Shown here in pieces: positions 1,690-62,231 of a stretch of 64,000 nt of DNA. The translations under genes were made by a program, and so were the position numbers. Where the stretch lies: the NCBI GenBank assembly GCA_041660105.1, contig JBAZWZ010000003.1, positions 25,527-89,526 of the forward strand, in the 5' to 3' direction. This DNA is from Minisyncoccota bacterium (lineage in GTDB: Bacteria; Patescibacteriota; Minisyncoccia; Phycocordibacterales; UBA1550). A model generated the notes under the pieces. The model worked only from the letters and a program-made list of their open reading frames with translations, had not been told where the DNA came from and ran no database searches. Every line of letters begins with the position of its first letter. Position 1 is the first letter of the stretch.

Positions 1690-1695
1690 AATGTT

Positions 1696-2799
1696 TTAAA
1701 ATATTGGTTTACTTGTGGCGTCGCTTGCGGCGAAATTAATGCGAAGCTCGCGGCTTGCCGCCTGGAAGATATGAGGTAGACTTGTTACCGTAAGAGAAAT
1801 ATCGGTGCTTCCTTTTGCTCCGGTGTCATTTCGAAGAGTAATGTCCCTATTGTTGTTTTGGGTTTTGTTTCCATTTACAGACCAATTATATCGAAGCGTT
1901 TGCATACCGAGTGAATTATTTGAGAAAAAAAATGGCTCTGCGCTTAATGAAAGCTCTCTGTTTGAGAGGTATGTTTCAGCGCTAAACGATTGGTTGTATT
2001 GCACTCCCAAAAGAGGGTGGTTTTCATAAAAGAGAACAAAAGGATTAGAAAGAGGAAAAGAAGCAGTTGCCTCAGAATTGATGGTGTCGTCTATGGATGA
2101 AACTTTGACACTAACAGAAGAGTGGCTTAAAGGAATTGGTCCTGTAAAAGAAAAGGAATTTTTCCCATATCCAGAAAACTTTGTCTGCACCGTTCCTTCT
2201 TTCTGCCATGTATACACGAGATCCCCCGCCCCTAGAGCATTTTTAGGGTCGGTATTGTCAGGAGTTGCAATAACTGTTACCGCTGCTTCGGGGGAAAGTA
2301 ATGGTTTTCCTTTATAAAAAGGCGGGGTATAGGTGTCTGCTTGCCAAAACAGCGTGATCCCTACAGGAGTCCATGACAAGTCTCTTGTTAAGATTTGCCC
2401 ACCATTCGTGGCAATGGTAATAGTAAGGTTGGTCGTCTCCCCTGATGAGCCGTTTTGAAAACCAAAATGCCTTTCTCCTAAACCTTTCAAGACAACCTTG
2501 TTATTTAGAGACCAGTTAATATAAGCCTTGTCTAAATCCGTGAGATAACTTTCAACAGTGATATTCACCGAAGTGTTTGGGCCAGGGTTTTTTGGTGTTG
2601 TTGTAATTTGCAAGTATTGATACATTGAGTCCTCAAGAATTTTACCGGGCAAAGCGAGCTCCTTAGCAAGTTCGCTTTGCATGAGATTATCTATTGTTTG
2701 CTCCGAAGTAGTGGTAGATGTTTGTGCAAATACAAAGAGTGGCCCACACAAAAAACTCGCTACAAGAGTACTAACGAGCAGTTTGTGCTTTTGATACAT
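1696..2799 (-). CDS. Secreted hypothetical protein of the T4SS-like operon, N/T/S-rich.
   Basis: 367-aa ORF with an N-terminal signal peptide (LLVSTLVASFLCGPLFVFAQT). No recognisable catalytic motif. Confidence 0.5.
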   Translation of the reverse strand: MYQKHKLLVSTLVASFLCGPLFVFAQTSTTTSEQTIDNLMQSELAKELALPGKILEDSMYQYLQITTTPKNPGPNTSVNITVESYLTDLDKAYINWSLNNKVVLKGLGERHFGFQNGSSGETTNLTITIATNGGQILTRDLSWTPVGITLFWQADTYTPPFYKGKPLLSPEAAVTVIATPDNTDPKNALGAGDLVYTWQKEGTVQTKFSGYGKNSFSFTGPIPLSHSSVSVKVSSIDDTINSEATASFPLSNPFVLFYENHPLLGVQYNQSFSAETYLSNRELSLSAEPFFFSNNSLGMQTLRYNWSVNGNKTQNNNRDITLRNDTGAKGSTDISLTVTSLPHIFQAASRELRINFAASDATSKPIF

Positions 2800-2851
2800 A
2801 TGCGTATATTATACCGCGAAAGTTCACAGCGCGCTATCATTGTGGGGTATT

Positions 2852-4687
2852 TTATACAACCCCCTGCGCTTCTGCGTCTGCAAGCTCTCGTTTTGCCTTC
2901 TTAATTGCCAGGATTTGTCCAGGGTCTGAGGTGATGATCTGCTCTTCCGTATAAGAAGCAATCGAGCGGATAGCTACGTGCTTCATCCCCGCAAAAAAGA
3001 TACCCTCCCCCACTCCTGATTCCAAAAGGAGGAATTTCTCTTCGTCAGTGAGGTTAAATGCCTTTTGCACTGCGTCAATCGAAGTTGGCGACTGCTTGAG
3101 TAGGATTTGGATAGAAGAGTTGGTCATAATTGGCAAGCCGTATGGTGACTTCAAGAAATCGTTTACGTCTTGGGTGATGGTGGCGATGCCGAGGTAGTAC
3201 TTTCGACCGCGTTTTGCGAGCGCATAAAGAAACGCTGCAGTGTCTTCGGACTTCATCATCCACCATGCTTCGTCCACCACAAGGAGACGCTTCCTCAGAG
3301 TGCGACGTACTGCGTTCCAGATAAAGTGCGTCACGAGATACATTGCCACAGGCTTCAAGTCGTCCTCCATATCGCGCACCGAGAAGACGATGAATTTGCG
3401 GTTGATGTCGACATTTGAAGGATTATTGATGAAACCTGCCCATGATCCACGTGTGTATTTGGTGAGCTTCGTGAGAATCCCCTCCGCGCCCTCCATCCCC
3501 GAAAGCACCATTTCAAAATCAGAAAGAAGTGGAGGCTCGATAGCGGAGAAGTCAGAGTCTGGTGTAATGTCTTTGAGCGCGTAGGTTTCGGAGATTGCAC
3601 GGTCGACGATAGCGTCTTCTTCTGGGCTGAGGCCAGAAAGCATAATACGAAAGAGACCGACGAGGGAAATGATGTTTGCACGGAGCACGTCGGCGGGCGA
3701 CTCGTCTTCTCGAGGAACAGGAAGATCAAATGGATTGATATGGTGCTCTGAGTTGAGAGAAATATTAAAATAGCGCCCCCCCACTGCTTCGGCCATAGAC
3801 TCATACTCACGCTCGGGGTCGATGACGATGACATCGATGTCGAACATCAAGCTACGCAAAATCTCGAGCTTGGTTGCAAAGGATTTTCCGGAACCAGACT
3901 TCGCAAATGTTACCGAGTTGTAGTTCTCGAGAGAAAAGCGATCGAAGAGGACGAGAGAAGCGTTGTGTCTGTTTATGCCATAGAGAATCCCCTTGTCAGA
4001 AGTGAGGTCGAAGGAAACAAACGGGAAGAAACTTGAAAGAGGTTGGGAGTTGATTTTTTTTGTAACGACAATCTTGTCGTCGTTTACAGGAATGATACTT
4101 TGAAAAGCCTCCTCTTGTTGGAAGAGCGCAGGACGAACATAAATAAGTCGTGACTCAAGCATTGATTTGATCTCTGCCTCAACGTGCCCGAGCTCCTCTT
4201 CTGTGTCAGCATAGAGAGACAAATAAAGACCAACATCAAACATTTTTTCTTGAGCTTGCTGGAGGCGGTCACGAAGTTCTTCGAGGTCGCGATATGCCGA
4301 CTCGAGCATTGGGTCACGCACAAAACCTTTGCTCTCACGCACATTTATTTGGCTTTGAACCTCAGCAACTTTCTTTTCAAACTTCTTCATAATCCCCGCA
4401 GTGTCGACAGGGTGAATGTAAATAGCAATATCAAATACCTTATCAAGGTTGATGAGCGGAGAAAGCCAGTTGTCGGAAACAACACTTGGGTATGAAGTAA
4501 TAAAGAAAGAGCGAACATATTTTTCCCCCAAAATAAGCTCCTTTGATTCAACTTTTACCGCAGATGGAGCGATAACATCAGCAAGGTTGAGCCCTGTATC
4601 AACATAAAGATCTTGCGCAAGAATAGGCATAGAGTTTTTATCTCCGCCCGCATCCGTCCTCTGTGTGTTTCCAAAAAAATTAATCAT
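2852..4687 (-). CDS. virB4: VirB4/TrbE/CagE-family T4SS ATPase (Gram-positive ConE/TcpF-like), lacking the extreme N-terminal domain.
   Basis: Walker A is FAKSGSGKSFATK and Walker B is LLVVDEAWWMM. The N-terminal region (GEKYVRSFFITSYPSVVSDNWLSPL...IAIYIHP) matches the CagE_TrbE_VirB core. 611 aa. Confidence 0.85.
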   Translation of the reverse strand: MINFFGNTQRTDAGGDKNSMPILAQDLYVDTGLNLADVIAPSAVKVESKELILGEKYVRSFFITSYPSVVSDNWLSPLINLDKVFDIAIYIHPVDTAGIMKKFEKKVAEVQSQINVRESKGFVRDPMLESAYRDLEELRDRLQQAQEKMFDVGLYLSLYADTEEELGHVEAEIKSMLESRLIYVRPALFQQEEAFQSIIPVNDDKIVVTKKINSQPLSSFFPFVSFDLTSDKGILYGINRHNASLVLFDRFSLENYNSVTFAKSGSGKSFATKLEILRSLMFDIDVIVIDPEREYESMAEAVGGRYFNISLNSEHHINPFDLPVPREDESPADVLRANIISLVGLFRIMLSGLSPEEDAIVDRAISETYALKDITPDSDFSAIEPPLLSDFEMVLSGMEGAEGILTKLTKYTRGSWAGFINNPSNVDINRKFIVFSVRDMEDDLKPVAMYLVTHFIWNAVRRTLRKRLLVVDEAWWMMKSEDTAAFLYALAKRGRKYYLGIATITQDVNDFLKSPYGLPIMTNSSIQILLKQSPTSIDAVQKAFNLTDEEKFLLLESGVGEGIFFAGMKHVAIRSIASYTEEQIITSDPGQILAIKKAKRELADAEAQGVV

Positions 4688-4704
4688 AATAGTTGTTGTT
4701 GATA

Positions 4705-5361
4705 TTATCGTACGTCGACCTTCTTCTCTGCTTCCCCAGGGTTGAATAGGCGGTAATAAAGCTCGGTGAGCTCCTCTGTCCCAAGAGGAACCACGCGCAC
4801 ACCGGTGCGAGAAAGTCCCTGACTGATAATCCCCGCTCGTTGTTCAAGTTGTGTGCGTGCCTCTTCAAATGCTTCAGCCGCGCTTTGAGAAGGAACACCA
4901 CTTGCCTCCTTCTTTTTCCCAAAAAGACCAGAAAGACCGCCACTTGAAGCAGGAGCGTTGGTGACCGACTTTGGAGGTGCATAGGGAACAACAATAACAA
5001 AAAGCTTACTCATAATATTTGTCGACTGAGCAATCGTTTTTACGAACCCCATATATTCGCGAATCTGAATCTTTAATAATTCATTAACCTCTTCCTTGAG
5101 GCGACCTTCAAGGAGGATAAGGTAAGGGCGAATATCAAGACGACGCGATTGAATAAAAATCTGTGTGGAGAACTCGAGAGAGTTGAGAAAACTTTGAAAC
5201 TGCATCAAGACTGCTTGTTGCTCGTCGCCTGACTTGAGGGCGAGGTTCACCGAAGACGCCATAAGAAGCATACGAATAGTGCCATCTTTCAAAATCACGA
5301 CACCGTCGCGGATCTCTTTTACGGGAACAAAATCTTGTGCTGCTTTTGATTTGACTGCCAT
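4705..5361 (-). CDS. VirB4 N-terminal-domain-like protein, encoded separately and in a different frame from the ATPase ORF.
   Basis: 218 aa. The region VKEIRDGVVILKDGTIRMLLMASSVNLALKSGDEQQAVLMQFQSFLNSLEFSTQIFIQSRRLD resembles the N-terminal domain of Gram-positive VirB4 homologues (Tn916 Orf16/ConE type). It ends 17 bp before the VirB4 ATPase ORF. Confidence 0.45.
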   Translation of the reverse strand: MAVKSKAAQDFVPVKEIRDGVVILKDGTIRMLLMASSVNLALKSGDEQQAVLMQFQSFLNSLEFSTQIFIQSRRLDIRPYLILLEGRLKEEVNELLKIQIREYMGFVKTIAQSTNIMSKLFVIVVPYAPPKSVTNAPASSGGLSGLFGKKKEASGVPSQSAAEAFEEARTQLEQRAGIISQGLSRTGVRVVPLGTEELTELYYRLFNPGEAEKKVDVR

Positions 5362-5365
5362 ATTA

Positions 5366-5830
5366 TTATTTTAGAATATCATCATCCTTATCCTTTCCTG
5401 TTTTACTTTTTTCTTCTGATTTTTGGGCTCCACGTACATCAAGGTTGAAAGATGCACTTGATAATTTCCCCATCGAAACGGAAGGTGTCGAGACTGGTTG
5501 TGAGGGGAGGAAGTCTTCCTCTTTTCCAGCCTTCGGCTCCGCAGTGGTCTTTTTCCACGTGTAAAGTTTGTCGTGGATCAGATAATTGAAGGCAGCCTCA
5601 AGGATTTCAATAAACGGCTTGCCAAGTTTTTCTTTTGGATAGAACGCGAGTGCCCACGTGAGCAAGGCAATACCAAAAATTATTGGGAATTTTATTGCCG
5701 CGTAAGGAATGATACGCCAAATAAGATAAATACCACCTCCTCCGCCAGCCACATAAATCGCTTGCTTCAAAGTAAGCGGGCCAAAGAGCTTGTCCTCGAT
5801 GTCGATGTATTGAGGAATATGGAATTGCAT
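5366..5830 (-). CDS. PrgI/ConD-like (VirB3-like) small two-TM T4SS membrane protein.
   Basis: Sequence MQFHIPQYIDIEDKLFGPLTLKQAIYVAGGGGGIYLIW... followed by two TM helices. The track ORF begins at an alternative TTG (5845). The ATG at 5830 gives a PrgI-family N-terminus. Confidence 0.55.
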   Translation of the reverse strand: MQFHIPQYIDIEDKLFGPLTLKQAIYVAGGGGGIYLIWRIIPYAAIKFPIIFGIALLTWALAFYPKEKLGKPFIEILEAAFNYLIHDKLYTWKKTTAEPKAGKEEDFLPSQPVSTPSVSMGKLSSASFNLDVRGAQKSEEKSKTGKDKDDDILK

Positions 5831-5838
5831 AGGTCTAT

Positions 5839-5873
5839 TATACAACTAACCACCAACAACTAACAACTAACAA
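5839..5873. repeat. Heptanucleotide-repeat module tatacaactaaccaccaacaactaacaactaacaa (CAACTAA variant), immediately upstream of the prgI-like start, with TATAAT in between.
   Basis: Read directly. On the coding strand it reads GTTAGTTGTTAGTTGTTGGTGGTTAGTTGTATAATAGACCT-ATG. Confidence 0.8.
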
Positions 5874-5885
5874 AAAATTAAAACA

Positions 5886-6677
5886 CTACTCAATCGGTTC
5901 GCGATAGGGGTCCCCCAGAGACGCGGGGCGAGGGGCTTGGGCGACAGCTTGCGTAATAGTAAGGTCCCCCATTGATTGTTGACCAGCAGTGAAAACTTTC
6001 TGCATTTTTTCCTCAAAAGGATGAACTTCTGGAGATGCCACTAGGGTTGGTTCTGGCTCTGTTGTTTTTGGAGTAAGGTTTGGTAAAAAGGACTCAGTCG
6101 TTTCTTCGGTGGGAAGATTTTGAGGGACTACTTCAGGAGATCTTTCCCATATTTTTGTCGACGTAGCGTCTGGATATATCATTCCTGGGGCAGGGACTTC
6201 GGCGGGAAGAACAAAAGTCTCTCCCTCCATAGGCGCTTCAGGGAGAAGAGATTCTTCTTGAGCAGACTCCATTTCATCAAGGGAAGGAACTCTTTTTTCA
6301 AAGATAGTATCAGGTACTTCACCAAAAAGCTCACGGTCTTCCTCTTCTTCCCTCTTTTGTTTTTCAATGGAAGCGACACGGATCTCCTCCATAGGAATAA
6401 ATATTTCACGAGAAATAATCTGACCAAGCTCCGCCGTATCTTCCGCAGTAAGACCGAGAGTTTCTTGGCATTTAGCAGTGAAGTCATCTTCAGAGAGAAG
6501 GCCAAGGATAACAAAATTAACCATTGCGTTTAATTTTTTCACCTGATCAGGGAGAAGACCAAATGCCTGACTTGCTGTCTGAATTTTTCTCTCAAGCTCA
6601 GGCGTAAAAACATTATCCTGTACTTCATCAGGAAGAAGGTTGAAGTTATTTTCGATTTGTTCGTCGGTATAGTTCAT
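5886..6677 (-). CDS. Acidic (Glu/Asp/Pro-rich) hypothetical protein in the T4SS-like operon.
   Basis: 263-aa ORF with no TM and low-complexity acidic C-terminal half. Confidence 0.45.
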   Translation of the reverse strand: MNYTDEQIENNFNLLPDEVQDNVFTPELERKIQTASQAFGLLPDQVKKLNAMVNFVILGLLSEDDFTAKCQETLGLTAEDTAELGQIISREIFIPMEEIRVASIEKQKREEEEDRELFGEVPDTIFEKRVPSLDEMESAQEESLLPEAPMEGETFVLPAEVPAPGMIYPDATSTKIWERSPEVVPQNLPTEETTESFLPNLTPKTTEPEPTLVASPEVHPFEEKMQKVFTAGQQSMGDLTITQAVAQAPRPASLGDPYREPIE

Positions 6678-6680
6678 AGT

Positions 6681-8975
6681 TTAGTGTTTTGCAGCTGATG
6701 CATCCTTTGGAGCTGAGTCTTTGTCCTTTTTGCCACCCTTGTCCTCTCCTAATTGCTTCTTTTTTTCCTGGATCTTTTCTATATCTGCTTCTGCTGACTC
6801 GAACTTCTTGAGCGCCTTTTCTGCTCTCCTTTTTTCGACAATTGCCATAGCGTGCATATCGGTATCATCGGGGTGTTTAGTTTTTACATATTCAAGTTGA
6901 GCTTCTGCTTTTGCCAATTTGTCCTCAAGCTCTTTAAGGGCCACCTCCTTTGCTTTTTTTGCTTCGGGGCTATCAAGCTCCATATCGTGAGGAATCTTAA
7001 GAGTTGTTTTAAAACTATCTGTTATTGCTTTCTCTTTTTCATCAAGGGAGATTCGTTTCTTTTCGTTCTTGTCAATCTCGTCTGCGGCTTGACCTCTCCC
7101 AATATTTGCTCCTGTAAAGGCTCTAAAGTTGGCAGCTGCCATTCCTGCCGCAGCGCCTGGTATACCGCCAGCTATTGCACCAGCTACTCCCCCTGCGATA
7201 GACCCTGCTATGCCACCAGACCTAAGCTGCTGTGCGTAAGCGGTGGCAGCGGTTCCCTCAATCTTTTTGCCTGTTTTAACCATCTCTCCCTTTTCGTTCT
7301 TTTTGTATTCATCAACCATCGCTTTGACAGCTTTGCCCCCCGCTCCTGTTGTAATCTTCTTTCCAAATGCAATATCAGTTGCCTTTGCTTCGGAAACAGT
7401 CTTCTGGAAGTTTCCTGCCCCACCCTTTCCTATACCAAGAGCAGCCCCCGCTCCAAATGGAGCATTACGAACGTCAAATGTTGCATTTGCCCCCTTATCA
7501 GTAAGATCGTAGGCAAGACGTCCAACCGATGATTCAGCTGCCCAAGCCTTGAAGCCTTCCCGCTCGGTGAGGTTGCGCGCTGCGCGACCAACAGTCTTTT
7601 GCGCAACAAGTGAAGCCCCGCCCGTAGCAAGGCCCATCGCACCGCTCACGAGATTTGACACTCCCTCACCCGTTGAACCAGCCATTCCCTCTGCAAACTT
7701 GAGCGCCTCCTGCAGTGCCTTGATAAGAAGAGCCGCAATCATTACGGGAGTAAGAATATACATAAAGTCGAAAGAACCACCAGCTGGAGGATCTTTTAAG
7801 ACACCACCCAAAATGCCATCTCCCGCACTTATTGCTTTCATAATGATATAAACAAAAAAGAGAAATACAGGGACGACGAAAGCTTGACTAATGAGCTCAT
7901 GAAGCCACTCATTAAATTTATTTGCCTTCCCAGGAAGTGCGATAGAAATGAAAGCAAAAGGAGAAAGTATCATTAGAGACCAAAATACAACAAGGCGTCT
8001 AACAAAAAGAAGAGCGGCTTTTAAAAAGATATACGCAGCGAAACCACTAACGATTGTCGCAACAATAAAAACAATGATCGCATCCATTGCGTGGACTTTT
8101 CCCGATACCAAAAGAAAGTTCTGAGGCTGGAAGGCCCCTGCCAAACTCGCTGAAATATCACGTTCGGGGACACCAACAACCGCAAAGCTTTGTTTATCAG
8201 GGGGGAGCTCAGTTCCCATACTGCTGTAAATCCCCACAGCCAAAACGTTCCCCGCGTCAATAATTATTTGAGAGAAAAAGAGACTAAAATTGATAAGAAG
8301 TGCCATCACAATAACCTTGAGCACGGTCCCTCTCCAGTCCTTTGCCCCCAAAATCGTCTGCACACCCGTATAAATGAGGATGAAGATAAAGAGCATATTT
8401 GAGAAGTCTCGCACTACTCCCCACGTGCTGTTTACGAAGTCTTGTTTAATGAAATTACTATCAATACTGAGCGTGAGCATTGCGTCAAATATGAATCCAG
8501 AACCTGCGAGGAGCCACGAGGCGGGCTTATATACACCATAATAGATAACAATAGGAATACACTCAGCTAGAGTGCCTGATGTCCCCATAAAGCCGTTGAG
8601 GGGGTTACACTTCAACTGCAATAAAATAGGGTCTGTCTCTGCATTAGCAGCAGCCTGTGCAGCATTTGCATTTGCGTTGTTTGCGTTTGTTTGGATTGCG
8701 GCACCTTGTTGTTCGGCCATCACAGAAACTCCAACGTGGCAGTTTGAAGCAATGACAAAACTGCTGTTGCCTGCTCTCGTGGACTGCGCTGCGCTACACG
8801 AGGCGCTGTCTGCGTATGGTCCAGAGACTTGTATGGTGCCTGGGTTCCCCCCCACGCCTACCTTTGCGTTATACCAAAAGAAATAACTATCAGCACCAAA
8901 AACAGTCGTCGCTCCGCCCAGCAAGAAAACGATTCCGAAGAGAAACGCTGTAATTTTTGGGAAGAGTTTTCTCAT
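6681..8975 (-). CDS. VirB6/ConG/TcpH-like polytopic membrane protein with a Gly-rich and Lys/Glu-rich coiled-coil C-terminal tail.
   Basis: 764 aa. Signal peptide, then at least 6 TM helices in the central region, then GIAGSIAGGVAGAIAGGIPGAAAGMAAA and a K/E-rich coiled coil. Its size, topology and position next to PrgI/VirB4 fit VirB6-like proteins of Gram-positive T4SS. Confidence 0.55.
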   Translation of the reverse strand: MRKLFPKITAFLFGIVFLLGGATTVFGADSYFFWYNAKVGVGGNPGTIQVSGPYADSASCSAAQSTRAGNSSFVIASNCHVGVSVMAEQQGAAIQTNANNANANAAQAAANAETDPILLQLKCNPLNGFMGTSGTLAECIPIVIYYGVYKPASWLLAGSGFIFDAMLTLSIDSNFIKQDFVNSTWGVVRDFSNMLFIFILIYTGVQTILGAKDWRGTVLKVIVMALLINFSLFFSQIIIDAGNVLAVGIYSSMGTELPPDKQSFAVVGVPERDISASLAGAFQPQNFLLVSGKVHAMDAIIVFIVATIVSGFAAYIFLKAALLFVRRLVVFWSLMILSPFAFISIALPGKANKFNEWLHELISQAFVVPVFLFFVYIIMKAISAGDGILGGVLKDPPAGGSFDFMYILTPVMIAALLIKALQEALKFAEGMAGSTGEGVSNLVSGAMGLATGGASLVAQKTVGRAARNLTEREGFKAWAAESSVGRLAYDLTDKGANATFDVRNAPFGAGAALGIGKGGAGNFQKTVSEAKATDIAFGKKITTGAGGKAVKAMVDEYKKNEKGEMVKTGKKIEGTAATAYAQQLRSGGIAGSIAGGVAGAIAGGIPGAAAGMAAANFRAFTGANIGRGQAADEIDKNEKKRISLDEKEKAITDSFKTTLKIPHDMELDSPEAKKAKEVALKELEDKLAKAEAQLEYVKTKHPDDTDMHAMAIVEKRRAEKALKKFESAEADIEKIQEKKKQLGEDKGGKKDKDSAPKDASAAKH

Positions 8976-8984
8976 TTAGTTAAT

Positions 8985-10103
8985 TTATTTTTTGAAGATA
9001 CCCTTGATGGCATCGTTGGATGCTTTAGTAACGATTGCGTCAATAATTTTACTTAGGTTGTCTGCAAGTCCAAGACGATCGAAGGATGCTCCTGTTGCCT
9101 TGGAAAGCTGATCAGAAATCAATTTACCCGGCGTTACTTTAGGGCACCAGATTCTCGCCATAGCAGCCTTGTCTGCATCACTAGCAGGGGCTATAAATTG
9201 AGGGTTTCCATCTGGTCCCGTAACTATCGTCGCTGTAGTCGAGGTAAAAGCGTCTTTGGTTGCCTCATCGGGCCAGTTACACTTTTCTGGGTCTGAGTCG
9301 TCAACCACGCTCAAGAAGCCACCATTCAAACTCAGCTGTCGTCTCGACTCTTCCAGAAGACCAGATTGTTGCTTGGTGAGCTCACTACTTGTGATAACAG
9401 AAACACCAAATGGATTGCCGTTATCATTGAGCGCTTTTTCAAAATACTGCCACGTGAAGGCAATCTTTCCTCTATAAAAATCAGAAGCATTTACTGAGGG
9501 AAAGGGGCACGCAACAGCTGCTCTATATACGGGGGCAGGATCAGCTTGCCCCAAGACAACCCATTGTTTTAGGTCATTTTTGAAGAGCGCATCAAAGTCA
9601 CACATTTCAAGCCCGTCAATCGTGCGCATAAGGTTTCCTGCGACAGAATCAAGGAGTTCCTTCTCCATTTGTTTTGGGTCTATAGCGTAGTTTGGGGAGC
9701 CGTGCATACCGCCCTTGATCCAGCTGATAGTCTCTTCGGTAAAGTTGTCGAGCATTAACTGTCCTGCCTTATAGGCAATACAGTCAGCCAATGGTTTCCC
9801 GTGCGCAGACCAAAAATTTGAGGCCTCAGCGTCTGCTGCTCCGCTCGCTGTTGTTGCTGCGACGCTCGCGTCTGAGGATGGAACAGCTATAGCCTCGTTT
9901 ACTGTAGTTACTCCCCCAAAAATCGCAAGATAACCCGCTTTTGCTCCCTCCATTAGGGATAGATTAGCGGCAGCTACCCCCGCACAGTCAACAGTCACTG
10001 ACTCCGCTGCAGCATAGGTGGCCCGAGGCATAAAAAAGGAAACACTCAAAAGCAGAGAAATACAGAGAATGGGGAGAAGTTTATATTTTTTTTGAGTGTT
10101 CAT
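8985..10103 (-). CDS. Secreted hypothetical protein (possible cell-wall-active or T4SS accessory protein).
   Basis: 372 aa with a signal peptide (LLPILCISLLLSVSFFMPRATYAAA). No SLT, CHAP or NlpC motif recognised. Confidence 0.45.
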   Translation of the reverse strand: MNTQKKYKLLPILCISLLLSVSFFMPRATYAAAESVTVDCAGVAAANLSLMEGAKAGYLAIFGGVTTVNEAIAVPSSDASVAATTASGAADAEASNFWSAHGKPLADCIAYKAGQLMLDNFTEETISWIKGGMHGSPNYAIDPKQMEKELLDSVAGNLMRTIDGLEMCDFDALFKNDLKQWVVLGQADPAPVYRAAVACPFPSVNASDFYRGKIAFTWQYFEKALNDNGNPFGVSVITSSELTKQQSGLLEESRRQLSLNGGFLSVVDDSDPEKCNWPDEATKDAFTSTTATIVTGPDGNPQFIAPASDADKAAMARIWCPKVTPGKLISDQLSKATGASFDRLGLADNLSKIIDAIVTKASNDAIKGIFKK

Positions 10104-10112
10104 ATAGATAAT

Positions 10113-10901
10113 TTATTTCTTTTGACTGAACAGTGATCCTGTTTGAGAAACCATCGAGAGTCCACTGTTGTATTTTGCAATACCTCGCATCCCCACGACG
10201 GGATCATTGATAATACTTTTCAGATCAATAACCCCAGAGAGAATGGTGGCATAACTCTCAATCATATACAGATGAAGACTAATCTCAGAACGAGGAACTT
10301 TTATAGAAAGAAGTGTGTTGATAAACTTTTGATAAACTGATATAGATTTTGAGAGAGGATTAAGTAGTGTTGCATCCCCCGCGCTGATTGCTTTATTTAC
10401 AACGGTAAGCTCCTCAAATATATCCTCACTAAAAAGTGTGTTGATGGCTTCAAGCATAGATTTTTTATACTGAGTGACTGCAGAAGTGCTTGTTTCTATA
10501 ACCACCAAGTCCTTTTCAGAATATACTTTTGTTGTGATTGCCGCTGGGGTAGTATCAAGAAGATTTTGAGCAAGAAGCGATACATCTTCGTCGCTCATCG
10601 TCGTCGTCGACATCCCTGTTTGAAAGGCAGCGTAGCTACTGAGAAGTTTTTGAGCCATCAAGGCCGTTGTGGAAGTAGCCTCGGCTGAGGCTGGGTCGTT
10701 ACTTTTTTTAGAAGAACCAAACGTGGTCGACGATGATGTTTGAGGAACAACACTGAGGGAGTCCTTCCATCCCCTATCGGCTGCCGTCCCAAGCTTGTCA
10801 ACGTATGTTACAGACGTACTTTTCCACGCAAAGAACACAATGCCTATCCCAACAAGAACTGCAAATAAAATAGAGAGTGTTTTTTTGTATTGCAATATCA
10901 T
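10113..10901 (-). CDS. Bitopic membrane protein (N-terminal TM plus about 230-aa extracytoplasmic domain), VirB8/ConB-like by architecture only.
   Basis: 262 aa with a single N-terminal TM (LSILFAVLVGIGIVFFAW). Domain size and operon position resemble VirB8-like components. No sequence motif confirmed. Confidence 0.35.
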   Translation of the reverse strand: MILQYKKTLSILFAVLVGIGIVFFAWKSTSVTYVDKLGTAADRGWKDSLSVVPQTSSSTTFGSSKKSNDPASAEATSTTALMAQKLLSSYAAFQTGMSTTTMSDEDVSLLAQNLLDTTPAAITTKVYSEKDLVVIETSTSAVTQYKKSMLEAINTLFSEDIFEELTVVNKAISAGDATLLNPLSKSISVYQKFINTLLSIKVPRSEISLHLYMIESYATILSGVIDLKSIINDPVVGMRGIAKYNSGLSMVSQTGSLFSQKK

Positions 10902-14301: not shown

Positions 14302-14323
14302 ATTTTTATTATAATTGATTTAA

Positions 14324-14559
14324 GTATACCCCCACACCTACTTTTTGCATAGTAAGTTATACACAGAAATGTATTTAGAGAACAACCGTCCTAAATACAT
14401 AGTGTGGTGGCGACGTAAAAGTAGGTGTGGGGGTGTACCCCCTGCCCAGTTCTCTTGCCTACTTTTTGCATAGTAAGTTATACACAGAAATGTATTTAGA
14501 GAACAACCGTCCTAAATACATAGTGTGGTGGCGACGTAAAAGTAGGTGTGGGGGGTATA
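14324..14559. repeat. Composite palindromic repeat of 1.7 units. The TIR is GTATACCCCCACACCTACTTTT, followed by a 70-bp core, the inverted TIR, a linker, and a second core plus inverted TIR.
   Basis: Read directly. 14324..14438 is TIR-core-TIR'. 14457..14559 repeats the core and right TIR. The whole block recurs in inverted orientation at 18555..18787. Confidence 0.85.
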
Positions 14560-14605
14560 ACACTGCATACTAGTTAAGCATAGTTGCGTGTGGTAAAATC
14601 TCAAT

Positions 14606-15631
14606 ATGAACATAAAGAGCAAGGTATTAATTGTATTGTGCCTCTGTCTTGCCCCTGCCTTTTCTTCGGCTCAGGCAGGAGCGTTTGGTACCAACCTCTC
14701 TTTGGGGACGAAAGGAGAAGATGTGCGCGCGCTACAAAAACTTCTTAATCTTGATAAAGACACACTTGTTGCAGACACAGGAGCCGGCTCACTTGGTAAC
14801 GAAACAGACTATTTTGGACCTGCAACCAAGCGCGCGCTTATAAAATTTCAGAATAAATACGCGTCAGAAATCCTTTTTCCTCTTGGGATGAGCACAGGGA
14901 ATGGATATTTTGGAGCGAGAACAAGAGAAAAGGCAAATTCTCTCACTGCAAACCTTACGACCTTAATAAATAGTACTATTGGACTATTCACTTCTCCTAT
15001 TGTTGAGACCCCCGTGACCCTCGTAACAGCAACCACCTCAACGAAGAGCGAGGTAAAACTCCCTGTTGAAAAAGGAACAGTAATCGTTATGATGCCTTCA
15101 CGATACTCAGGAAAGCCAGGAACCACAATCACTCTTTCTGGTGCGGGATTTACTTCTACTGATAACACAGTATATTTTGGGACCAATCACGCTCTTGCGG
15201 GGGTAACGTCATTCAATGGACAATCAGTCACGTTTAAGGTTCCTGCAATTCCAAAAGGTATCTACTCCTCTCTCTATGTGGTAAACGCTCGCGGGGAAAG
15301 TAATAAGGATCAGTGGTTTATCGTAACTGACGGCGTATCCCCTGAACCAAAAATAGAAAAGTTTGAACCAGGCATTGTTTCTCGTGGCAGCACCGTAGTA
15401 ATTAAGGGAGCTGGATTTTCTAAGGACAAAAACGCAATTATTGTAAGCGGTATAGGGTTATTTAAAAATGTTCCATCTGTGGACGGGGCATCAATCTCGC
15501 TCGTTATCCCAAAGGATGCTTTCCCTGTAAAATATTCCCCTACCATAGCAAACCCTACCTTCTCCTCCTCTGTGCGCGTGCTCAATGAAAATGGTGTAAG
15601 TAATTTAGGGAAACTCACACTTAGCTTGTAA
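14606..15631 (+). CDS. Secreted protein with an N-terminal peptidoglycan-binding domain (PGBD1-like) and two IPT/TIG-like beta-sandwich segments.
   Basis: Signal peptide MNIKSKVLIVLCLCLAPAFSSAQA. GTNLSLGTKGEDVRALQKLLNL matches the PG_binding_1 helix. TITLSGAGFTSTDNTVYFG and STVVIKGAGFSKDKNAIIVSG are TIG-like. Confidence 0.55.
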   Translation: MNIKSKVLIVLCLCLAPAFSSAQAGAFGTNLSLGTKGEDVRALQKLLNLDKDTLVADTGAGSLGNETDYFGPATKRALIKFQNKYASEILFPLGMSTGNGYFGARTREKANSLTANLTTLINSTIGLFTSPIVETPVTLVTATTSTKSEVKLPVEKGTVIVMMPSRYSGKPGTTITLSGAGFTSTDNTVYFGTNHALAGVTSFNGQSVTFKVPAIPKGIYSSLYVVNARGESNKDQWFIVTDGVSPEPKIEKFEPGIVSRGSTVVIKGAGFSKDKNAIIVSGIGLFKNVPSVDGASISLVIPKDAFPVKYSPTIANPTFSSSVRVLNENGVSNLGKLTLSL

Positions 15632-15681
15632 GATGGGGCTTTGAGGTTGTTAATACGGTTGTTGTGTGAAATAATTAAAAA

Positions 15682-16137
15682 ATGAAAGTATTTAATATTA
15701 TAAAAAGATATAAATTGTCCCTCTCAATTATTTTTTGTACAGTGCTTATTTCTGGTGCTCTTGTGTATAAAATTAAAAAAAGCGAAGCACTAGGTTATTT
15801 TGGTTTTGGGGGGTACGTGACCTCGGTGGTTATTTGTACGTGTTCTGCAGTCCCGACCTATTATGTAACCATTGGACCACCGCTTGGTGGGAGCTTCCTT
15901 CTTATGGAGGGAGTAAGTGAACCTTATGCCAACTGGGATATTTTTGGAACAAATTGGACTTTTGTGGGGACTGACACCTTTATTATGGAACCCGCTGGTC
16001 CCTGGGTCCTTGGGGCGTACACTCCAGGAGTTGGTGTGGGATGTATGATGGTGGGAGAGCCTTGTTATCCTTATGCTCCTGCACTGGGAACGATTCGACC
16101 ATACGGTACTTCCCTTGGGTCAGTTACTGGAATTTAA
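15682..16137 (+). CDS. Small Gly/Pro-rich membrane or secreted hypothetical protein.
   Basis: 151 aa with an N-terminal TM (LSLSIIFCTVLISGALVY). Overlaps the 3' end of convergent rsmA by 14 bp. Confidence 0.4.
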   Translation: MKVFNIIKRYKLSLSIIFCTVLISGALVYKIKKSEALGYFGFGGYVTSVVICTCSAVPTYYVTIGPPLGGSFLLMEGVSEPYANWDIFGTNWTFVGTDTFIMEPAGPWVLGAYTPGVGVGCMMVGEPCYPYAPALGTIRPYGTSLGSVTGI

Positions 16138-16927
16138 TTTGGAGAAGGTTCAGCCAATCCTTAAGGGTGAGGTTTTCTGCGCGGGCCTTGTCTTTGATGT
16201 TTGCCGCCACAAAAATCTCAATAGTTTTGTCGCCAAAAAGTTCTTTCAGGTTTCCTGCAAGAACTTTTCTTTTGTGAGCGAAGCCTGCGCGGACGATTTT
16301 GAAAAACTTTTCTTCCTCTTTTTTATTTTTAAAATTTTTGTTTGAAATGTTTTCAATAGAGAGAACTGCTGAGTCAACTTTTGGAGTTGGGCTGAAGTAT
16401 CGCGCGGGAACTTTTTTTATAAACTTCGGTGTGCCGTACACTTTTACCGCAATGGATAGAATACTTTCTTTTTTATCGCGCGCAACGATGCGTGTTGCTA
16501 CTTCTTTCTGTACCATAAGAACCATTTTTGTTGGTTTGTTTTTTGCTTCAAGAAACATGCGAATGATTTGGCCCGTGAGATAGTAAGGTATATTGGCGAC
16601 AAGCTTGTAGTCTTGCCCGCCTAAGTTTTTTGAAAAAAAAGTTTGGTGGGTGGTGAGTTCTACAATATCGCCATGAATGAGGGTAAATTGTTTAATTTTG
16701 ATTTGCTCGGCAAACTTTTCAGTGAGTAATGGAATCATACGGTCATCTTTTTCTACAGCGATGACGAGAGCGCCAGAAGCAAGAAGCTCAGAAGTGAGAA
16801 ATCCTTTCCCGGGGCCTATCTCAAGCACAGTTTCTCCAGTAGTGAGACTCGCAGCACGCACAATATCTCTCGCCACTGTTTTAGAGTTGAGAAAATTCTG
16901 CCCGAGTGATTTCTTGGCGTGAATCAT
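16124..16927 (-). CDS. rsmA: 16S rRNA (adenine1518/1519-N6)-dimethyltransferase RsmA/KsgA.
   Basis: MIHAKKSLGQNFLNSKTVARDIVRAASLTTGETVLEIGPGKGFLTSELL matches the RsmA N-terminus and SAM-binding motif. 267 aa. Confidence 0.9.
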   Translation of the reverse strand: MIHAKKSLGQNFLNSKTVARDIVRAASLTTGETVLEIGPGKGFLTSELLASGALVIAVEKDDRMIPLLTEKFAEQIKIKQFTLIHGDIVELTTHQTFFSKNLGGQDYKLVANIPYYLTGQIIRMFLEAKNKPTKMVLMVQKEVATRIVARDKKESILSIAVKVYGTPKFIKKVPARYFSPTPKVDSAVLSIENISNKNFKNKKEEEKFFKIVRAGFAHKRKVLAGNLKELFGDKTIEIFVAANIKDKARAENLTLKDWLNLLQIKFQ

Positions 16928-16933
16928 AAAAGA

Positions 16934-18547
16934 TTAGTGAAAGAAGATTGAAACAAGACAGAACACAAAAAACAGGAAGAATATATAGCGCTCCTTGTAT
17001 GGCTTTCTTACGCAAAGCCAGTATCCAATGATTGCAGTCGGGAGGGCAATACTGTAGGTCGTAAAGAACGGAAGGAAAAATGGCGCCAATATAAAGCTTA
17101 ACGCAAGAAGGAACCCCACAACTTCATTTCCATATTTTCCAAAGATGACAGGGAGGGTCTTTATTCCCGCCTTACGGTCCCCCTCTACATCTTTGATATC
17201 ACGGATATTAACTCCTAGCGTGAAAATAATAAGAATACCGATTGCGTAAGACACAGGAAATTCAGTGATTATTTTGCCTGATGAGACAAAAAAGAAACCA
17301 GCAAATACCGTCGCAAGGACAGCAATTGAAATTAGGAATGAAGAAAAGAGAGGGACTTGCTTGAGGCGGAATGGAGGCGCTGAGTAAAGGTAGTATGCAC
17401 TGATGAATATCGCGCTCATGAAAAAAGCAAAATAACCAACAATATATGCCCCGATAAGTGACAAGAGAAGCCATACATAACTAATCTCGTGCATTTCTCG
17501 GACGGTGACAGCCCCTCTTGGTAAGGGTCTATCAGGGTTTGATATTTTATCGATCTCAATATCAGCGAGGTCATTTACGTGTGTTGCAAACATGCAGGCG
17601 CTAAACCACGAGAGAGAAAGAACCGTGAAGCTGAGCCAATCTACCCAAGTAAACATGATGGGGAATCTCGAGTATGCGCTCAGAGACCCCATTCCGAGCA
17701 AACTTAAACATAGAAAGATTCGTGTTGTACGGATGTTGCCCAAAACTGCAAGAGCTGTTTTTTTGTGTGCGTACCAAAACCATGCTAACCCAAAAATAAA
17801 AAACAGGAGGTAGAGCACCTGGGATAGTAAAGTATTTCGACCATTCATAGAGAGAACCGAGGGAGTGCTGTATAGAAGTTCCCCATGAAGGATGTTTGTA
17901 GGAATGTTTGAACCCGCCACAGACCGTTGCATGAAACTAGTAACAGCTGAGGTGTCTGCTCCGTTTAATGGTATGTGTGAGACTGTATAAAGAATTCCAG
18001 GGAGGGCACCAATGATAAACATCAATGTATAGGAAACAAGAACAGCAACAACCGTAGAAATAATTTTTTTACTTTTCGTCTGAACATACCAACCGATAGC
18101 ACACAAAATGAGAAATACTTCAATCTGCATGCCAGGAGTTGCCCCATTTCCTACTCCGCCAAATGTAAGATAGTCCGCAAAAAGTTTAGGCCCAGTGTCA
18201 GCTATGTATGACATGTGTGCCACACCTCCTTTTGTAAGGATAAGATCAATAATCGGCGCTAGAAAGATAATAGGAAGGCCGTAGAGGGCCAAGTTGATGA
18301 CCCTATTTCCTCTCTGTTTTGTAAAAATAGATACTACAAGAGAAAGAATGAGTGCGACTACAACAAAACATATAAAATAATGAACGCGACGAAGGTTGCT
18401 GACGACAATGCCTGAGTATGGAGTATTAGAAAAAATCTCGATAAAAGAACGAATAACCACAACAGCGGTAAATCCCGCGATCCACTGGGGGATACTTGGG
18501 CTTGGGAAATCTCCGTCAATAATTTTTTTCACTAGTTTCTTTAACAT
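16934..18547 (-). CDS. UbiA-family prenyltransferase domain fused to an unusual roughly 300-aa polytopic N-terminal extension.
   Basis: Asp-rich motif 1 is NDLADIEIDKISNPDRPLPRGAV and motif 2 is DIKDVEGDRKAGIKTLPV, both in the C-terminal 230 aa. More than 7 additional TM helices lie upstream. The track ORF starts at a GTG inside the TIR repeat. The ATG at 18547 (MLKKLVKK) is more likely. Confidence 0.6.
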   Translation of the reverse strand: MLKKLVKKIIDGDFPSPSIPQWIAGFTAVVVIRSFIEIFSNTPYSGIVVSNLRRVHYFICFVVVALILSLVVSIFTKQRGNRVINLALYGLPIIFLAPIIDLILTKGGVAHMSYIADTGPKLFADYLTFGGVGNGATPGMQIEVFLILCAIGWYVQTKSKKIISTVVAVLVSYTLMFIIGALPGILYTVSHIPLNGADTSAVTSFMQRSVAGSNIPTNILHGELLYSTPSVLSMNGRNTLLSQVLYLLFFIFGLAWFWYAHKKTALAVLGNIRTTRIFLCLSLLGMGSLSAYSRFPIMFTWVDWLSFTVLSLSWFSACMFATHVNDLADIEIDKISNPDRPLPRGAVTVREMHEISYVWLLLSLIGAYIVGYFAFFMSAIFISAYYLYSAPPFRLKQVPLFSSFLISIAVLATVFAGFFFVSSGKIITEFPVSYAIGILIIFTLGVNIRDIKDVEGDRKAGIKTLPVIFGKYGNEVVGFLLALSFILAPFFLPFFTTYSIALPTAIIGYWLCVRKPYKERYIFFLFFVFCLVSIFFH

Positions 18548-18554
18548 AGTGACA

Positions 18555-18787
18555 GTATACCCCCACACTTACTTTTTGTATAATAATTATCTACAAAATT
18601 TAGTAGAAACATATTAAACCCGTTCATCTAATGATTGCCTATGCAAAAAGTAGGCAAGAGAACTGGGCAGGGCGTACACCCCCACACCTACTTTTACGTC
18701 GCCACCACACTATGTATTTAGGACGGTTGTTCTTAAAATACATTTCTGTGTATAACTTACTATGCAAAAAGTAGGTGTGGGGGTATA
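18555..18787. repeat. Inverted copy of the 14324..14559 composite repeat. One unit has a different core (core Y); the other is 99% identical to the 14324..14438 unit.
   Basis: The reverse complement of 18673..18787 matches 14324..14438 with a single mismatch. Linker cccctgcccagttctcttgcc is shared. Same TIRs. Confidence 0.85.
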
Positions 18788-18820
18788 GCAGAATCAAGGA
18801 GGGTCTGCCCGCTGAACTAA

Positions 18821-20788: not shown

Positions 20789-20850
20789 GCACAAAATACA
20801 AGAGGCGCCGAGCACCAGTACTGGTGCTCGGCGCCTCTTGTATTTTGTGC
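20789..20850. terminator. 62-bp perfect palindrome (30-bp arms), probable intrinsic terminator for the 97-aa gene.
   Basis: gcacaaaatacaagaggcgccgagcaccagtactggtgctcggcgcctcttgtattttgtgc read directly, between the 97-aa gene stop and the helicase start. Confidence 0.6.
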
Positions 20851-28331: not shown

Positions 28332-28433
28332 TGCGTATATTATAACGTGTATTGTGACGACTATACAAGCGGTGACGTGCAAAATAAAAGGCAATCACGA
28401 AAGTGATTGCCTTTTATTTTGCACGTCACTGTG

Positions 28434-29825: not shown

Positions 29826-29892
29826 GATTATAGTATAGCGCGCGCAGGGCTCGATGCTTCGCATCGAGCCCTGCGCGCGCTATACTATAATC
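29826..29892. promoter_or_regulatory. 67-bp perfect palindrome (32-bp arms, 3-nt centre) in the divergent intergenic region, ending exactly at the recombinase ATG.
   Basis: gattatagtatagcgcgcgcagggctcgatgc-ttc-gcatcgagccctgcgcgcgctatactataatc read directly. The next three bases are the ATG of the xerC/D-like gene. Confidence 0.7.
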
Positions 29893-30828
29893 ATGTCGCA
29901 CAATATTCCTCAAACCTCCCTCGGCAATTACGCACGACAGTATCTCGAATACTTGGAGATTGAGCGCGGGCGAAGCCTGAAGACTATCGAGAACTATGAG
30001 CGCTACCTCACGCGCTTCCTCACTGCGAGTGGGGCGAAGGAGCCAAGCGATGTTACTGATGATCTCATTCGTACTTTCCGTCTCTGGCTCAACAGACAAG
30101 AGTCAGGAGTACGTGAGGGCCGCCATGAAACACTCAAAAAGAAAACTCAAAACTATTACTTGATTGCTATTCGCAGTTTTCTCAAATATTTGCGCAAGCG
30201 TGGTGTTGAGTCGTATTCGCCTGAGAAGATTGAGCTTGCGAAAGTTGCCGAGCGCACTATCGACCTGCTGAGTGTTCAAGACCTCCATCGCCTCCTCGCA
30301 GCACCAAGTGGCGACTCCGTGAAAGAGTTCCGTGATAAGGCAATCCTCGAACTCTTTTTCTCGACAGGGCTTCGTCTTTCTGAGCTCTGTGCACTCCAGC
30401 GTGATATTGATCTTACCCGCGATGAAATATCCGTGCGTGGTAAAGGTGAAAAGGTCCGTGTGGTGTTTCTCTCGGATGAAGCAAAGACTGCCATTGCTGC
30501 CTATTTGAAAAAGAGAAAAGATATGGACGATGCGCTCTTTGCAAGTGATAAGGCCCGCGCAGATGGCTCGCTTCGTCTCACTCCCCGCTCAATAGAGCGT
30601 ATGGTGAAACACTATGCCGCAAAGGCGGGAATCATGGACAAAGTAACGCCCCACATCTTGCGCCACTCGTTTGCAACCGACCTTCTTTATAACGGCGCCG
30701 ATATTCGCTCGGTGCAAATAATGCTCGGTCATTCAAATATTTCCACAACACAGATATATACGCACGTGACGGATAGTGAACTGAGAAACGTACACAAAAA
30801 GTTTCACGGGAAGAGCAGAGAGGAATAA
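29893..30828 (+). CDS. Tyrosine recombinase, XerC/XerD-like.
   Basis: N-terminal SAM-like domain (LEYLEIERGRSLKTIENYERYLTRFL). Catalytic residues R...HILRHSFATDLLYNGADIRSVQIMLGHSNISTTQIYTHV. Start set to MSHNIPQ (29893). Confidence 0.85.
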   Translation: MSHNIPQTSLGNYARQYLEYLEIERGRSLKTIENYERYLTRFLTASGAKEPSDVTDDLIRTFRLWLNRQESGVREGRHETLKKKTQNYYLIAIRSFLKYLRKRGVESYSPEKIELAKVAERTIDLLSVQDLHRLLAAPSGDSVKEFRDKAILELFFSTGLRLSELCALQRDIDLTRDEISVRGKGEKVRVVFLSDEAKTAIAAYLKKRKDMDDALFASDKARADGSLRLTPRSIERMVKHYAAKAGIMDKVTPHILRHSFATDLLYNGADIRSVQIMLGHSNISTTQIYTHVTDSELRNVHKKFHGKSREE

Positions 30829-31385: not shown

Positions 31386-31501
31386 GTATACCCCCACACC
31401 TACTTTTAACGCAAACAATTTTGTGAAACATTGAATGCACTATTAGTTATCTTGATTTGTGTATCATAATGACTTTAGTAAAAGTAGGTGTGGGGGTATA
31501 C
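31386..31501. repeat. Third member of the TIR-bounded palindromic element family (same 22-bp TIRs, unrelated core), abutting the xth start.
   Basis: gtatacccccacacctactttta...taaaagtaggtgtgggggtatac read directly. The xth ATG lies 10 bp downstream. Confidence 0.8.
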
Positions 31502-57829: not shown

Positions 57830-57845
57830 CCGCGCGAAGCGCGGC

Positions 57846-57993
57846 GACAACTGACCACTAACACCGCTGCGCGGACAACTGACAAGAATGCAAAATACAC
57901 AACTGACAATTAACAAAGAACAACTGACAATTAACCAACAGATTTTCGCTACGCGAAAATCTGCCGTCAGTTGTCAGTTGTCAGTTGTCAGTT
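57846..57993. repeat. Pilin-1 5' module: the ACACCGCTGCGCGGACAACTGAC box, CAACTGA-type repeats, the palindrome CAGATTTTCGC-TAC-GCGAAAATCTG (57929..57953), and (GTCAGTT)x4 (57956..57985).
   Basis: Read directly. It overlaps the start of the pilin-1 ORF. Confidence 0.85.
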
Positions 57994-58433: not shown

Positions 58434-58450
58434 GGAGTAGAATATAATAA

Positions 58451-58594
58451 GAACAACTGACAACTGACAACTGACACAAAACAAAATGCAACAAAAACAA
58501 CTGACAACTGACAAAGAACAAATTACACACAAGCAGCGGATTTTCGCTACGCGAAAATCCGCCGTCAGTGGTCAAATGTCAGTTGTCAGTTGTG
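58451..58594. repeat. Pilin-2 5' module: (CAACTGA)x3, then (CAACTGA)x2 inside the start of the ORF, the palindrome CAGCGGATTTTCGC-TAC-GCGAAAATCCGCCG (58534..58564), and degenerate GTCAGTT repeats.
   Basis: Read directly. Confidence 0.85.
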
Positions 58595-60108: not shown

Positions 60109-60109
60109 T

Positions 60110-60735: not shown

Positions 60736-60747
60736 TTTATTATATTT

Positions 60748-62124: not shown

Positions 62125-62126
62125 GA

Positions 62127-62207: not shown

Positions 62208-62231
62208 TTATTCCTGTGATATAATAAACGT

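Follow-up and report, generated by a model that had tools for sequence, protein, structure and literature searches.

A candidate family of transposase-less inverted-repeat elements that favours TATA sites, often at leaderless promoters, in Patescibacteria

The repeats and the genes that they flank

The DNA analysed here (the window) is a 64,000-nt stretch of contig JBAZWZ010000003.1 of a Minisyncoccota bacterium, in which a short inverted-repeat element occurs as five units at three sites; all coordinates given below without a locus label are positions in the window. Two composites of about 235 bp, at 14325-14559 and 18556-18787, are inverted copies of each other, and between them lie four genes, which by Pfam code for a TIG/peptidoglycan-binding (PG-binding) secreted protein, a 151-aa protein without a family match, RsmA (RrnaAD) and UbiA. 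This segment of about 4 kb is flanked by an unannotated open reading frame (ORF) of 744 aa on the left and by UvrD on the right. The third site, at 31387-31500 beside xth, holds a single unit with an unrelated core. An earlier description made from the letters of this DNA only (hereafter, the sequence-only reading) had named the same four genes, the two reverse-complementary blocks with a swapped core and the additional unit at xth, and in all of these it proved right. The longer inverted arms (14315-14473 and 18639-18797) extend over 159 nt and are 96% complementary, with six mismatches between them, and a second inverted pair (14458-14554 and 18679-18775) extends over 97 nt at 98%. Within the left composite, 14337-14433 is repeated at 14458-14554 (97 nt at 100%; family D5), its second core being a copy of core a, whereas the right composite retains a different core, b.

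A 22-mer, GTATACCCCCACACCTACTTTT, is present seven times in the window at one mismatch or less (14324, 18555, 18674 and 31386 on the plus strand; 14417, 18767 and 31480 on the minus strand), with none expected from 100 shuffles. The units had been described as bounded by 22-bp terminal inverted repeats (TIRs); they are TIR-bounded, but the conserved terminus is a 17-mer, CCCCCACACCTACTTTT, and the outer GTATA/TATAC of the 22-mer is a 4-bp target-site duplication, TATA, together with one host base. The TIRs of the element are accordingly CCCCCACACCTACTTTT and AAAAGTAGGTGTGGGGG, of 17 bp each. Read on the strand of the UbiA gene, both composites have the form TATA-unit-T(G/A)(T/C)A-unit-TATA, in which unit E1 (repeat, core a, repeat) is joined by a single shared 4-mer to unit E2, whose inner terminal repeat, T2, has decayed. 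The features at the three sites are:

14325-14328: TATA, target-duplication copy at the outer end of the left composite, towards the 744-aa gene (assigned from the sequence and the 4-bp duplication rule)
14329-14433: unit E1-L, 105 bp; CCCCCACACCTACTTTT, 71-nt core a, AAAAGTAGGTGTGGGGG
14434-14437: TGTA, the only 4-mer common to E1-L and E2-L; marks insertion beside an existing element
14438-14555: unit E2-L, 118 bp; T2 (CCCCCTGCCCAGTTCTCTTGCCTACTTTT, 14438-14466), core a (a 100% copy of that of E1), AAAAGTAGGTGTGGGGGG
14556-14559: TATA, flank of the left composite on the side of the TIG/PG-binding gene
18554-18559, minus strand: TATACT, -10 box of the leaderless UbiA gene (ATG at 18547, gap of 6 nt); the TATA within it, 18556-18559, is one copy of the target duplication
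18560-18674: unit E2-R, 115 bp; CCCCCACACTTACTTTT, core b, decayed repeat T2' (18645-18674, reverse complement of T2)
18675-18678: TACA, 4-mer common to E2-R and E1-R; reverse complement of TGTA at 14434-14437 and within the 159-nt arm
18679-18783: unit E1-R, 105 bp; inverted copy of E1-L, 98%
18784-18787: TATA, the other copy of the target duplicated by the right composite
31387-31500: single unit; element of 106 bp with a unique core (31391-31496) and TATA at 31387-31390 and 31497-31500, the right one belonging to the TATACT -10 box of xth (ATG at 31511, gap of 8 nt)

Units are 105-118 bp long in the window and 36-141 bp elsewhere. Only one ORF of at least 50 aa lies wholly inside a composite (18639-18797, 52 aa, TTG start); the units are without coding capacity, and no plausible gene fits into 105-118 bp. 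Intact units fold into long hairpins with the repeats as the stem (z = -5.7 to -8.8; for E1-L, z = -7.3), and such a hairpin could influence read-through from uvrD into the UbiA gene. When the window was compared with Rfam, only tRNAs were matched at the gathering threshold, and no match within the elements was obtained at the E-value threshold.

Distribution, pairing and target-site duplication

A scan of one genome per species for the exact sequence ACCCCCACACYTACTTTT returned at least 112 loci, nearly all of them in metagenome-assembled genomes (MAGs) of Patescibacteria, and an independent scan of metagenomes for the bare 17-mer returned at least 120. The copies in related genomes by which the sequence-only reading had proposed to judge its element family are thus present: taken together, the scans place the terminal repeat at more than 230 loci in many Patescibacteria genomes. 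Among the matches listed, the lineages are Yonathbacteria, Nomurabacteria, Zambryskiibacteria, Paceibacterota, Minisyncoccia and MAGs labelled Saccharibacteria. Paired matches listed from the genome scan come almost all from records titled Patescibacteria or 'Parcubacteria' lineages, and the few listed in unrelated phyla are lone, have no partner and are compatible with chance. Individual genomes hold many copies, with at least nine loci each in MHUW01 and CAZXOE01. In viral contigs there were only two matches.

An inverted partner within 250 nt, at no more than four mismatches, was found for 114 of the 128 testable repeats (89%) and for none in control regions. The pairs define at least 96 distinct elements with cores of 2-107 nt. 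In both data sets, the core lengths group near 35, 71 and 103 nt, about 35 nt apart, a pattern that subfamilies or stepwise internal duplication may explain. Elements can also lie close together, as at positions 480-1300 of locus L026, where four are adjacent and one has a variant repeat (ATCCCCACACCTATATTT). A gene at locus L199 that, as read from its sequence without a family search, encodes DNA-3-methyladenine glycosylase I seems to draw its start codon and roughly 15 initial codons (MTKSNSKVGVG…) from the core and terminal repeat of an element (8690-8757; duplication CAAG).

Target-site duplications, which the sequence-only reading had also singled out as a means of deciding its case, are found in both sets. 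Of the 79 elements in the genome set, 57 have CCCCC…GGGGG between perfect 4-bp direct repeats (permutation mean 15.3, maximum 24); in the metagenome set, where searching with the bare 17-mer corrects the A/T bias considered below, the figure is 48 of 71 (permutation mean 7.2, maximum 15). Repeats of 3, 6, 7 and 8 bp gave no signal, and those of 5 bp a weak excess (6/71, metagenome set). The duplicated 4-mers of the metagenome set are most often TATA (13), followed by CAAG (7), TTTA (6) and CTTG, ATAA and TAAA (four each), with TACA, TGTA, CACA, CACG, CATG and AAAA being rarer; just outside the duplication, G is found on the left in 37 of 71 cases and C on the right in 40 of 71. A 2-bp duplication at a target GTNNAC was considered and dropped, in that elements with an outer base other than A or T still have matching 4-mers (CTTG, ATAA, TTAT, CAAG).

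Orthologous sites with and without the element

The window is syntenic at about 75% nucleotide identity with the Yonathbacteria MAG MHUW01, the relative compared below at loci L006 and L007; other relatives are likewise referred to by locus labels. At three sites, a single TATA is found exactly where either the window or a relative has an element. The UbiA promoter is filled in the window and empty in L116, L118 and L120, and the heptamer 'gattctg' is kept up to the junction; the spacer between uvrD and the UbiA gene reads gattctgCTATA, 223 bp and TATACtgtcactATG in the window as against gattctgGTATACtgtcactATG in L118 and ctatttgCTATACtgtcactATG in L116. L116 and L118 have the same TATACT-TGTCACT-ATG at their empty UbiA sites, and the empty allele in its window version would read gattctgCTATACtgtcact. 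The xth promoter, which in the window has the element with TATA on both sides, is empty in L007 (ggttcgcTATACTgtaaagtATG). The third site is empty in the window: a single TATA at 2810-2813, in the -10 box (TATAAT, minus strand) of a leaderless gene starting at 2799, reads gtatatTATAccgcgaaag, as against atatagTATA, an element (CCCCC…GGGGG) and TACAccgcgaaac in L006, with the element exactly at this TATA. Each of the three empty sites has its target TATA within a leaderless gene's -10 box. As these sites carry the -10 box without the motif, the box and the leaderless start are ancestral and the DNA between the two copies of TATA is an insertion.

History of the composites and of the 4-kb segment

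The right composite is flanked by TATA as a whole, the 159-nt identity runs across the E1-TGTA-T2 junction, and the site is empty in three relatives; the two-unit composite therefore moved as one piece, by way of its intact outer repeats. A composite 96-98% identical to its partner, at a site where three relatives have no element, shows that transposition has been recent in these reduced genomes. In L116 and L118, the large gene after the TIG gene stands where the window has the 744-aa gene, and a decayed repeat (AAAAAGTTGGCAGGGGAG and AAAAAGTTGGTACGGGGG, respectively) is found upstream of it at the orthologous place, the sites reading ctaggcAAAAAGTTGGCAGGGGAGTATACTtttgggtATG and …AAAAAGTTGGTACGGGGGTATACTtttaccATG; T2 resembles these repeats and has the GGCAGGGG state in common with L116, which suggests that the left site is the older one. 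We infer the following order of events. The 744-aa gene would first have had an old element, E2 (inner repeat now T2), at its -10 box. Next to this, E1 would have entered a TATA, giving a two-unit composite with intact outer repeats, and the whole composite, inverted, would then have been mobilised over 4.2 kb into the TATACT box that serves the UbiA gene. Homogenisation of the two cores of the left copy, now 100% identical, would have come afterwards, with the right copy keeping core b. Both the left-to-right direction and the conversion step belong to this reconstruction, and a third, unseen donor copy of the composite is possible.

Orthologues of the UbiA gene (61-63% amino-acid identity) were compared together with their neighbourhoods: in L116 and L118 the order and orientation are those of the window (uvrD, UbiA, rsmA, the small gene, the TIG gene and a homologue of the 744-aa gene), and L120 matches it for uvrD-UbiA-rsmA, with an additional gene of 226 aa between uvrD and UbiA and other genes beyond rsmA. 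Since the relatives keep this order, the 4-kb segment is ancestral in orientation rather than a transposed composite transposon, and it shows no fixed inversion. The Logan contig L113 (SRR18595301; 4144 bp) is identical to 14525-18668 of the window and breaks in both composites; its ends are where 31-mers cease to be unique, and it is therefore uninformative about isomers. The sample of L113 also holds a 63%-identical relative, L117.

Leaderless promoters beside the elements

The base that follows …GGGGG is T, and mostly ATACT or ATAAT comes next, giving a TATACT or TATAAT hexamer. Among the matches listed, 28 of 73 have a long ORF whose ATG comes 6-8 nt after this hexamer, the commonest spacing, and 44 of 140 elements (31%) abut a leaderless start. 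By their N-terminal sequences, the genes downstream of elements include dnaE, rnhB, zwf, def, rpsB, pilM and xth, and those deemed essential on this basis (dnaE, rpsB, def) tolerate the adjoining element. Within the window, about 21 of some 60 genes have an ATG preceded, at 5-9 nt, by a TAnAnT hexamer and no room for a Shine-Dalgarno sequence, and in only two of these, UbiA and xth, does the -10 box directly adjoin an element. Leaderless starts are thus a general trait of the genome, and the count suggests that leaderless translation is widespread in this Paceibacteria genome. The sequence-only reading had all elements at gene 5' ends; such a position is at least partly explained by a preference for TATA-like targets, which are often -10 boxes, but some ends face the 3' ends of genes.

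Insertion would often occur into -10 boxes and at times into the TTGA of -35 boxes. The duplication would then restore TATA on the gene side, so that the -10 box and its spacing to the ATG survive, and the sequence upstream of the box would be replaced by the terminal repeat of the element. After insertion, AAAAGTAGGTGTGGGGG forms a 17-bp spacer and a subterminal hexamer of the element (TATGCA, TATACA) stands at the -35 position; at the UbiA gene, TATACA-17-TATACT passes a simple scan for the sigma-70 consensus. In two pairs of filled orthologous sites (L040/L074 and L077/L104), the gene-proximal repeat is intact and the core and distal repeat have decayed. Among 44 elements with a leaderless start on one side, the proximal repeat is the better preserved in 18 and the distal one in 8, a trend only (p = 0.076). 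The terminal repeat may, then, have promoter activity, and co-option as the 'mobile promoter cassette' that had been suggested for this DNA is plausible, if unproven.

Other repeats and genes in the window

Intergenic arrays of the heptamer ACAACTGAC/ACAACTAAC lie at 5836-5876, 51041-51095, 57884-58025, 58440-58623, 60112-60258 and 62124-62168. Those at 5836 and 51041 come directly after (G)TATAC, the former within the -10 box of a PrgI-like gene; the other four are inside a type IV pilin/T2SS-F gene cluster (56615-63011). The arrays could be regulator-binding sites or a second repeat family. Perfect palindromes with arms of 26-32 nt and loops of 0-4 nt are found at 20789-20850, 28372-28429, 29826-29892, 40832-40887, 43674-43735 and 49696-49758, and several resemble extended bidirectional terminators. 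The palindrome at 29826-29892 includes the TATACTATAAT -10 region of a leaderless xerC/D-like gene, and that at 40832-40887 takes in the 3' end of a tRNA. A gene cluster at 700-10901 has Pfam matches to a type IV secretion system (T4SS) pilin, a TraG/VirB4-like P-loop ATPase and PrgI, and also encodes several large proteins without a Pfam match.

Discussion

The repeats are, with a probability that we put at about 0.8, copies of a family of non-autonomous DNA transposons, or miniature inverted-repeat transposable elements (MITEs), which is widespread in Patescibacteria of the Paceibacteria type and favours TATA sites. Variable 4-bp duplications, TIRs, small size, the absence of an ORF, the many copies and the empty sites are together the features that define a MITE, and the pairing, the duplications and the empty sites bear out the transposase-less, MITE-like TIR family that the sequence-only reading had proposed. 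Movement would depend on a transposase acting in trans, probably of the DDE type, that makes 4-bp staggered cuts at a G/NNNN/C-like target (slashes flanking the duplicated bases) with a strong preference for TATA. The duplicated 4-mer varies from copy to copy, which makes tyrosine or serine recombination unlikely; the sole recombinase found in the window is the XerC/D-like gene at 29854-30828.

Several observations weigh against this interpretation or narrow its basis. The roughly 55 ORFs of the window include no candidate for a transposase, a Y1/RAYT enzyme or another nuclease, and neither in about 1.6 Mb of loci nor in viral contigs was an autonomous copy seen, no pair of terminal repeats in those loci enclosing a transposase gene. 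Even the copies of a single genome (for example, MHUW01) have different cores, save for a degenerate subterminal TGYATAG; such variability is unusual for a recently active MITE and implies that most copies are old, with their 17-mers still intact, which hints at a constraint other than transposition. Core a had no match in the metagenome collection, from which the contig of the window is itself absent, and the genome to which the window belongs was scanned within these 64 kb only. Finally, the first search pattern forced A and T beside the element, inflating T-N-N-A among the duplications of the 57/79 set.

The search for an autonomous element took in repeat pairs more than 260 nt apart. The pair in L199 (1577 nt apart) proved to be two small elements around two ordinary genes, a metalloprotease-like one and tag, and the pairs in L026 and L068 (about 770 nt apart) to be small elements clustered about a GIY-YIG ORF and a pilin-like gene. 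The GIY-YIG ORF, of 87 aa and lying between one repeat pair in L026, was set aside as a mobiliser, GIY-YIG ORFs at three other loci not being beside repeats.

Of the other explanations, the one closest to the promoter data takes the motif as a vertically inherited promoter or regulatory module of the host, with AAAAGTAGGTGTGGGGG as a conserved spacer or operator for a host factor and the pairs as divergent promoters. It would agree with the succession of motif, TATACT/TATAAT and an ATG 6-8 nt on, with a subclass in which the motif stands directly before TTGACA-N17-TATAAT, with the better-kept proximal repeats, both at the orthologous filled sites and in the count of 18 against 8, and with the sigma-70-like arrangement at the UbiA gene. 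However, it gives no account of 4-bp direct repeats of variable sequence, nor of exact presence and absence at sites where the -10 box exists without the motif; 89% of the motifs are paired and some ends face the 3' ends of genes (18767-18783 points into that of uvrD); and the proximal/distal trend falls short of significance. Our own first reading, of the motif as a conserved promoter element, was rejected on finding the -10 box already in place at empty sites and the 4-bp duplications. A host module is therefore unlikely, and could hold only as a secondary co-option on top of mobility. A further idea, doubtful but worth keeping in mind, is that the 17-mer serves across the clade as a portable upstream promoter half or protein-binding site, kept by host selection on the gene-proximal side and perhaps bound by a single-copy, vertically inherited (domesticated) transposase-like factor; if this were true, the family would rewire and co-regulate leaderless genes across Paceibacteria without a conventional insertion sequence (IS).

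Homologous or site-specific inversion of the 4.2-kb segment (TIG, the small protein, rsmA, UbiA) as a switch, which the sequence-only reading had offered, might be expected from 159-nt inverted arms at 96% identity, from the XerC/D-like recombinase encoded in the window and from the breaks of contig L113 exactly within both repeats. Such breaks arise wherever 31-mers lose their uniqueness, as in any repeat, and the four genes with both flanks keep order and orientation in L116 and L118, with L120 agreeing from uvrD to RsmA; moreover, inversion would exchange near-identical promoter-bearing ends with no obvious change in expression, and six mismatches between the arms speak against frequent exchange. 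We regard such a switch as quite improbable, while occasional inversion between the arms is possible, though unsupported. That reading had likewise thought of repetitive extragenic palindromic (REP) sequences or bacterial interspersed mosaic elements (BIMEs) and of a REP-associated tyrosine transposase (RAYT) encoded elsewhere; such units, or REPIN-like ones, would be spread by this enzyme, an IS200/IS605-type Y1 transposase. A pairing into intergenic inverted doublets, the variability of the spacer, a GTAG within the motif and the absence of a transposase from the units would all suit this. Single-strand transposition by Y1/HUH enzymes is not known to make target duplications, and here 4-bp duplications flank the elements; the single 17-mer is not self-complementary and so forms no REP hairpin, and none of the roughly 55 window ORFs matches Y1_Tnp. 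This origin is very unlikely. We give still less credence to a role of the 17-mer in natural competence, as a DNA uptake sequence of the often paired kind known in Neisseria, for which the exact conservation over a clade, the frequent inverted pairs and the type IV pilus components encoded in the window might be cited; seven repeats in 64 kb is a low density, and the strict pairing, the flanking duplications, the empty sites and a location at 5' promoter boxes rather than terminators all argue otherwise.

If the repeats are MITEs, the family is new, though not a new kind of system. Genomes of Patescibacteria (the candidate phyla radiation, CPR) are small and usually described as poor in mobile DNA, and in the full-text literature we found no description of the motif, of CPR MITEs or of CPR leaderless promoters. 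What sets the family apart is a near-invariant 17-mer over a wide breadth of Patescibacteria, frequent insertion into the promoter TATA of leaderless genes, the recent movement of a composite and the missing transposase. The elements also account for breaks in MAG assemblies, several copies being at contig ends and L113 ending in the repeats. The exchange of the upstream half together with restoration of the -10 box offers a natural experiment on the requirements of leaderless promoters in organisms for which genetic manipulation is not yet possible, and the 17-mer is a simple marker with which to find the elements and, through them, the transposase.

Comparison with known systems

IS-derived bacterial MITEs with 4-bp duplications (e.g., those related to IS5 and IS701) have identifiable parent ISs with matching ends. 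The family described here resembles them in size, terminal repeats, 4-bp duplication and reliance on a transposase in trans, but no parent IS was found among the window ORFs or in the 1.6 Mb of loci. With REP/BIME and REPIN-RAYT systems it has in common short intergenic inverted doublets, a less conserved spacer, long persistence in a lineage and the lack of an internal gene; REPINs, however, have no target duplication and each REP is a hairpin beside GTAG, as opposed to the 4-bp duplications and non-palindromic 17-mers seen here.

In piggyBac, the duplication is reported to be TTAA, with variants TAAA, TCAA and TATG, the 5' motifs are CCC, and IS1380 is the prokaryotic outgroup (PMC10813416). 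Our elements are similar in having a 4-bp duplication at an AT-rich, TTAA-like 4-mer and CCC…GGG termini (here CCCCC…GGGGG), but their preferred target is TATA within G/NNNN/C, and the duplications also include 4-mers that are not purely AT (CAAG, CTTG, CACG). The TTAA specificity of piggyBac proper is not seen, in that the listed duplications include no TTAA pair and TATA is the commonest. IS1380 duplications are 4-5 bp long. From this comparison, a relationship to piggyBac/IS1380 can be taken as a lead only.

Correia elements (CREE/NEMIS) of Neisseria create or alter neighbouring promoters and fold into hairpins in transcripts. Like them, the present elements are transposase-less, of about 100-155 bp, with terminal repeats, many intergenic copies and a short AT duplication that forms a TATA-type -10 box at the junction. 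The two have no sequence similarity, and whereas in Correia elements, known from a single genus, the duplication is TA (2 bp) and the cores are conserved, the family described here duplicates 4 bp, has highly variable cores (classes of about 35, 71 and 103 nt) and extends over several candidate phyla-level groups of Patescibacteria.

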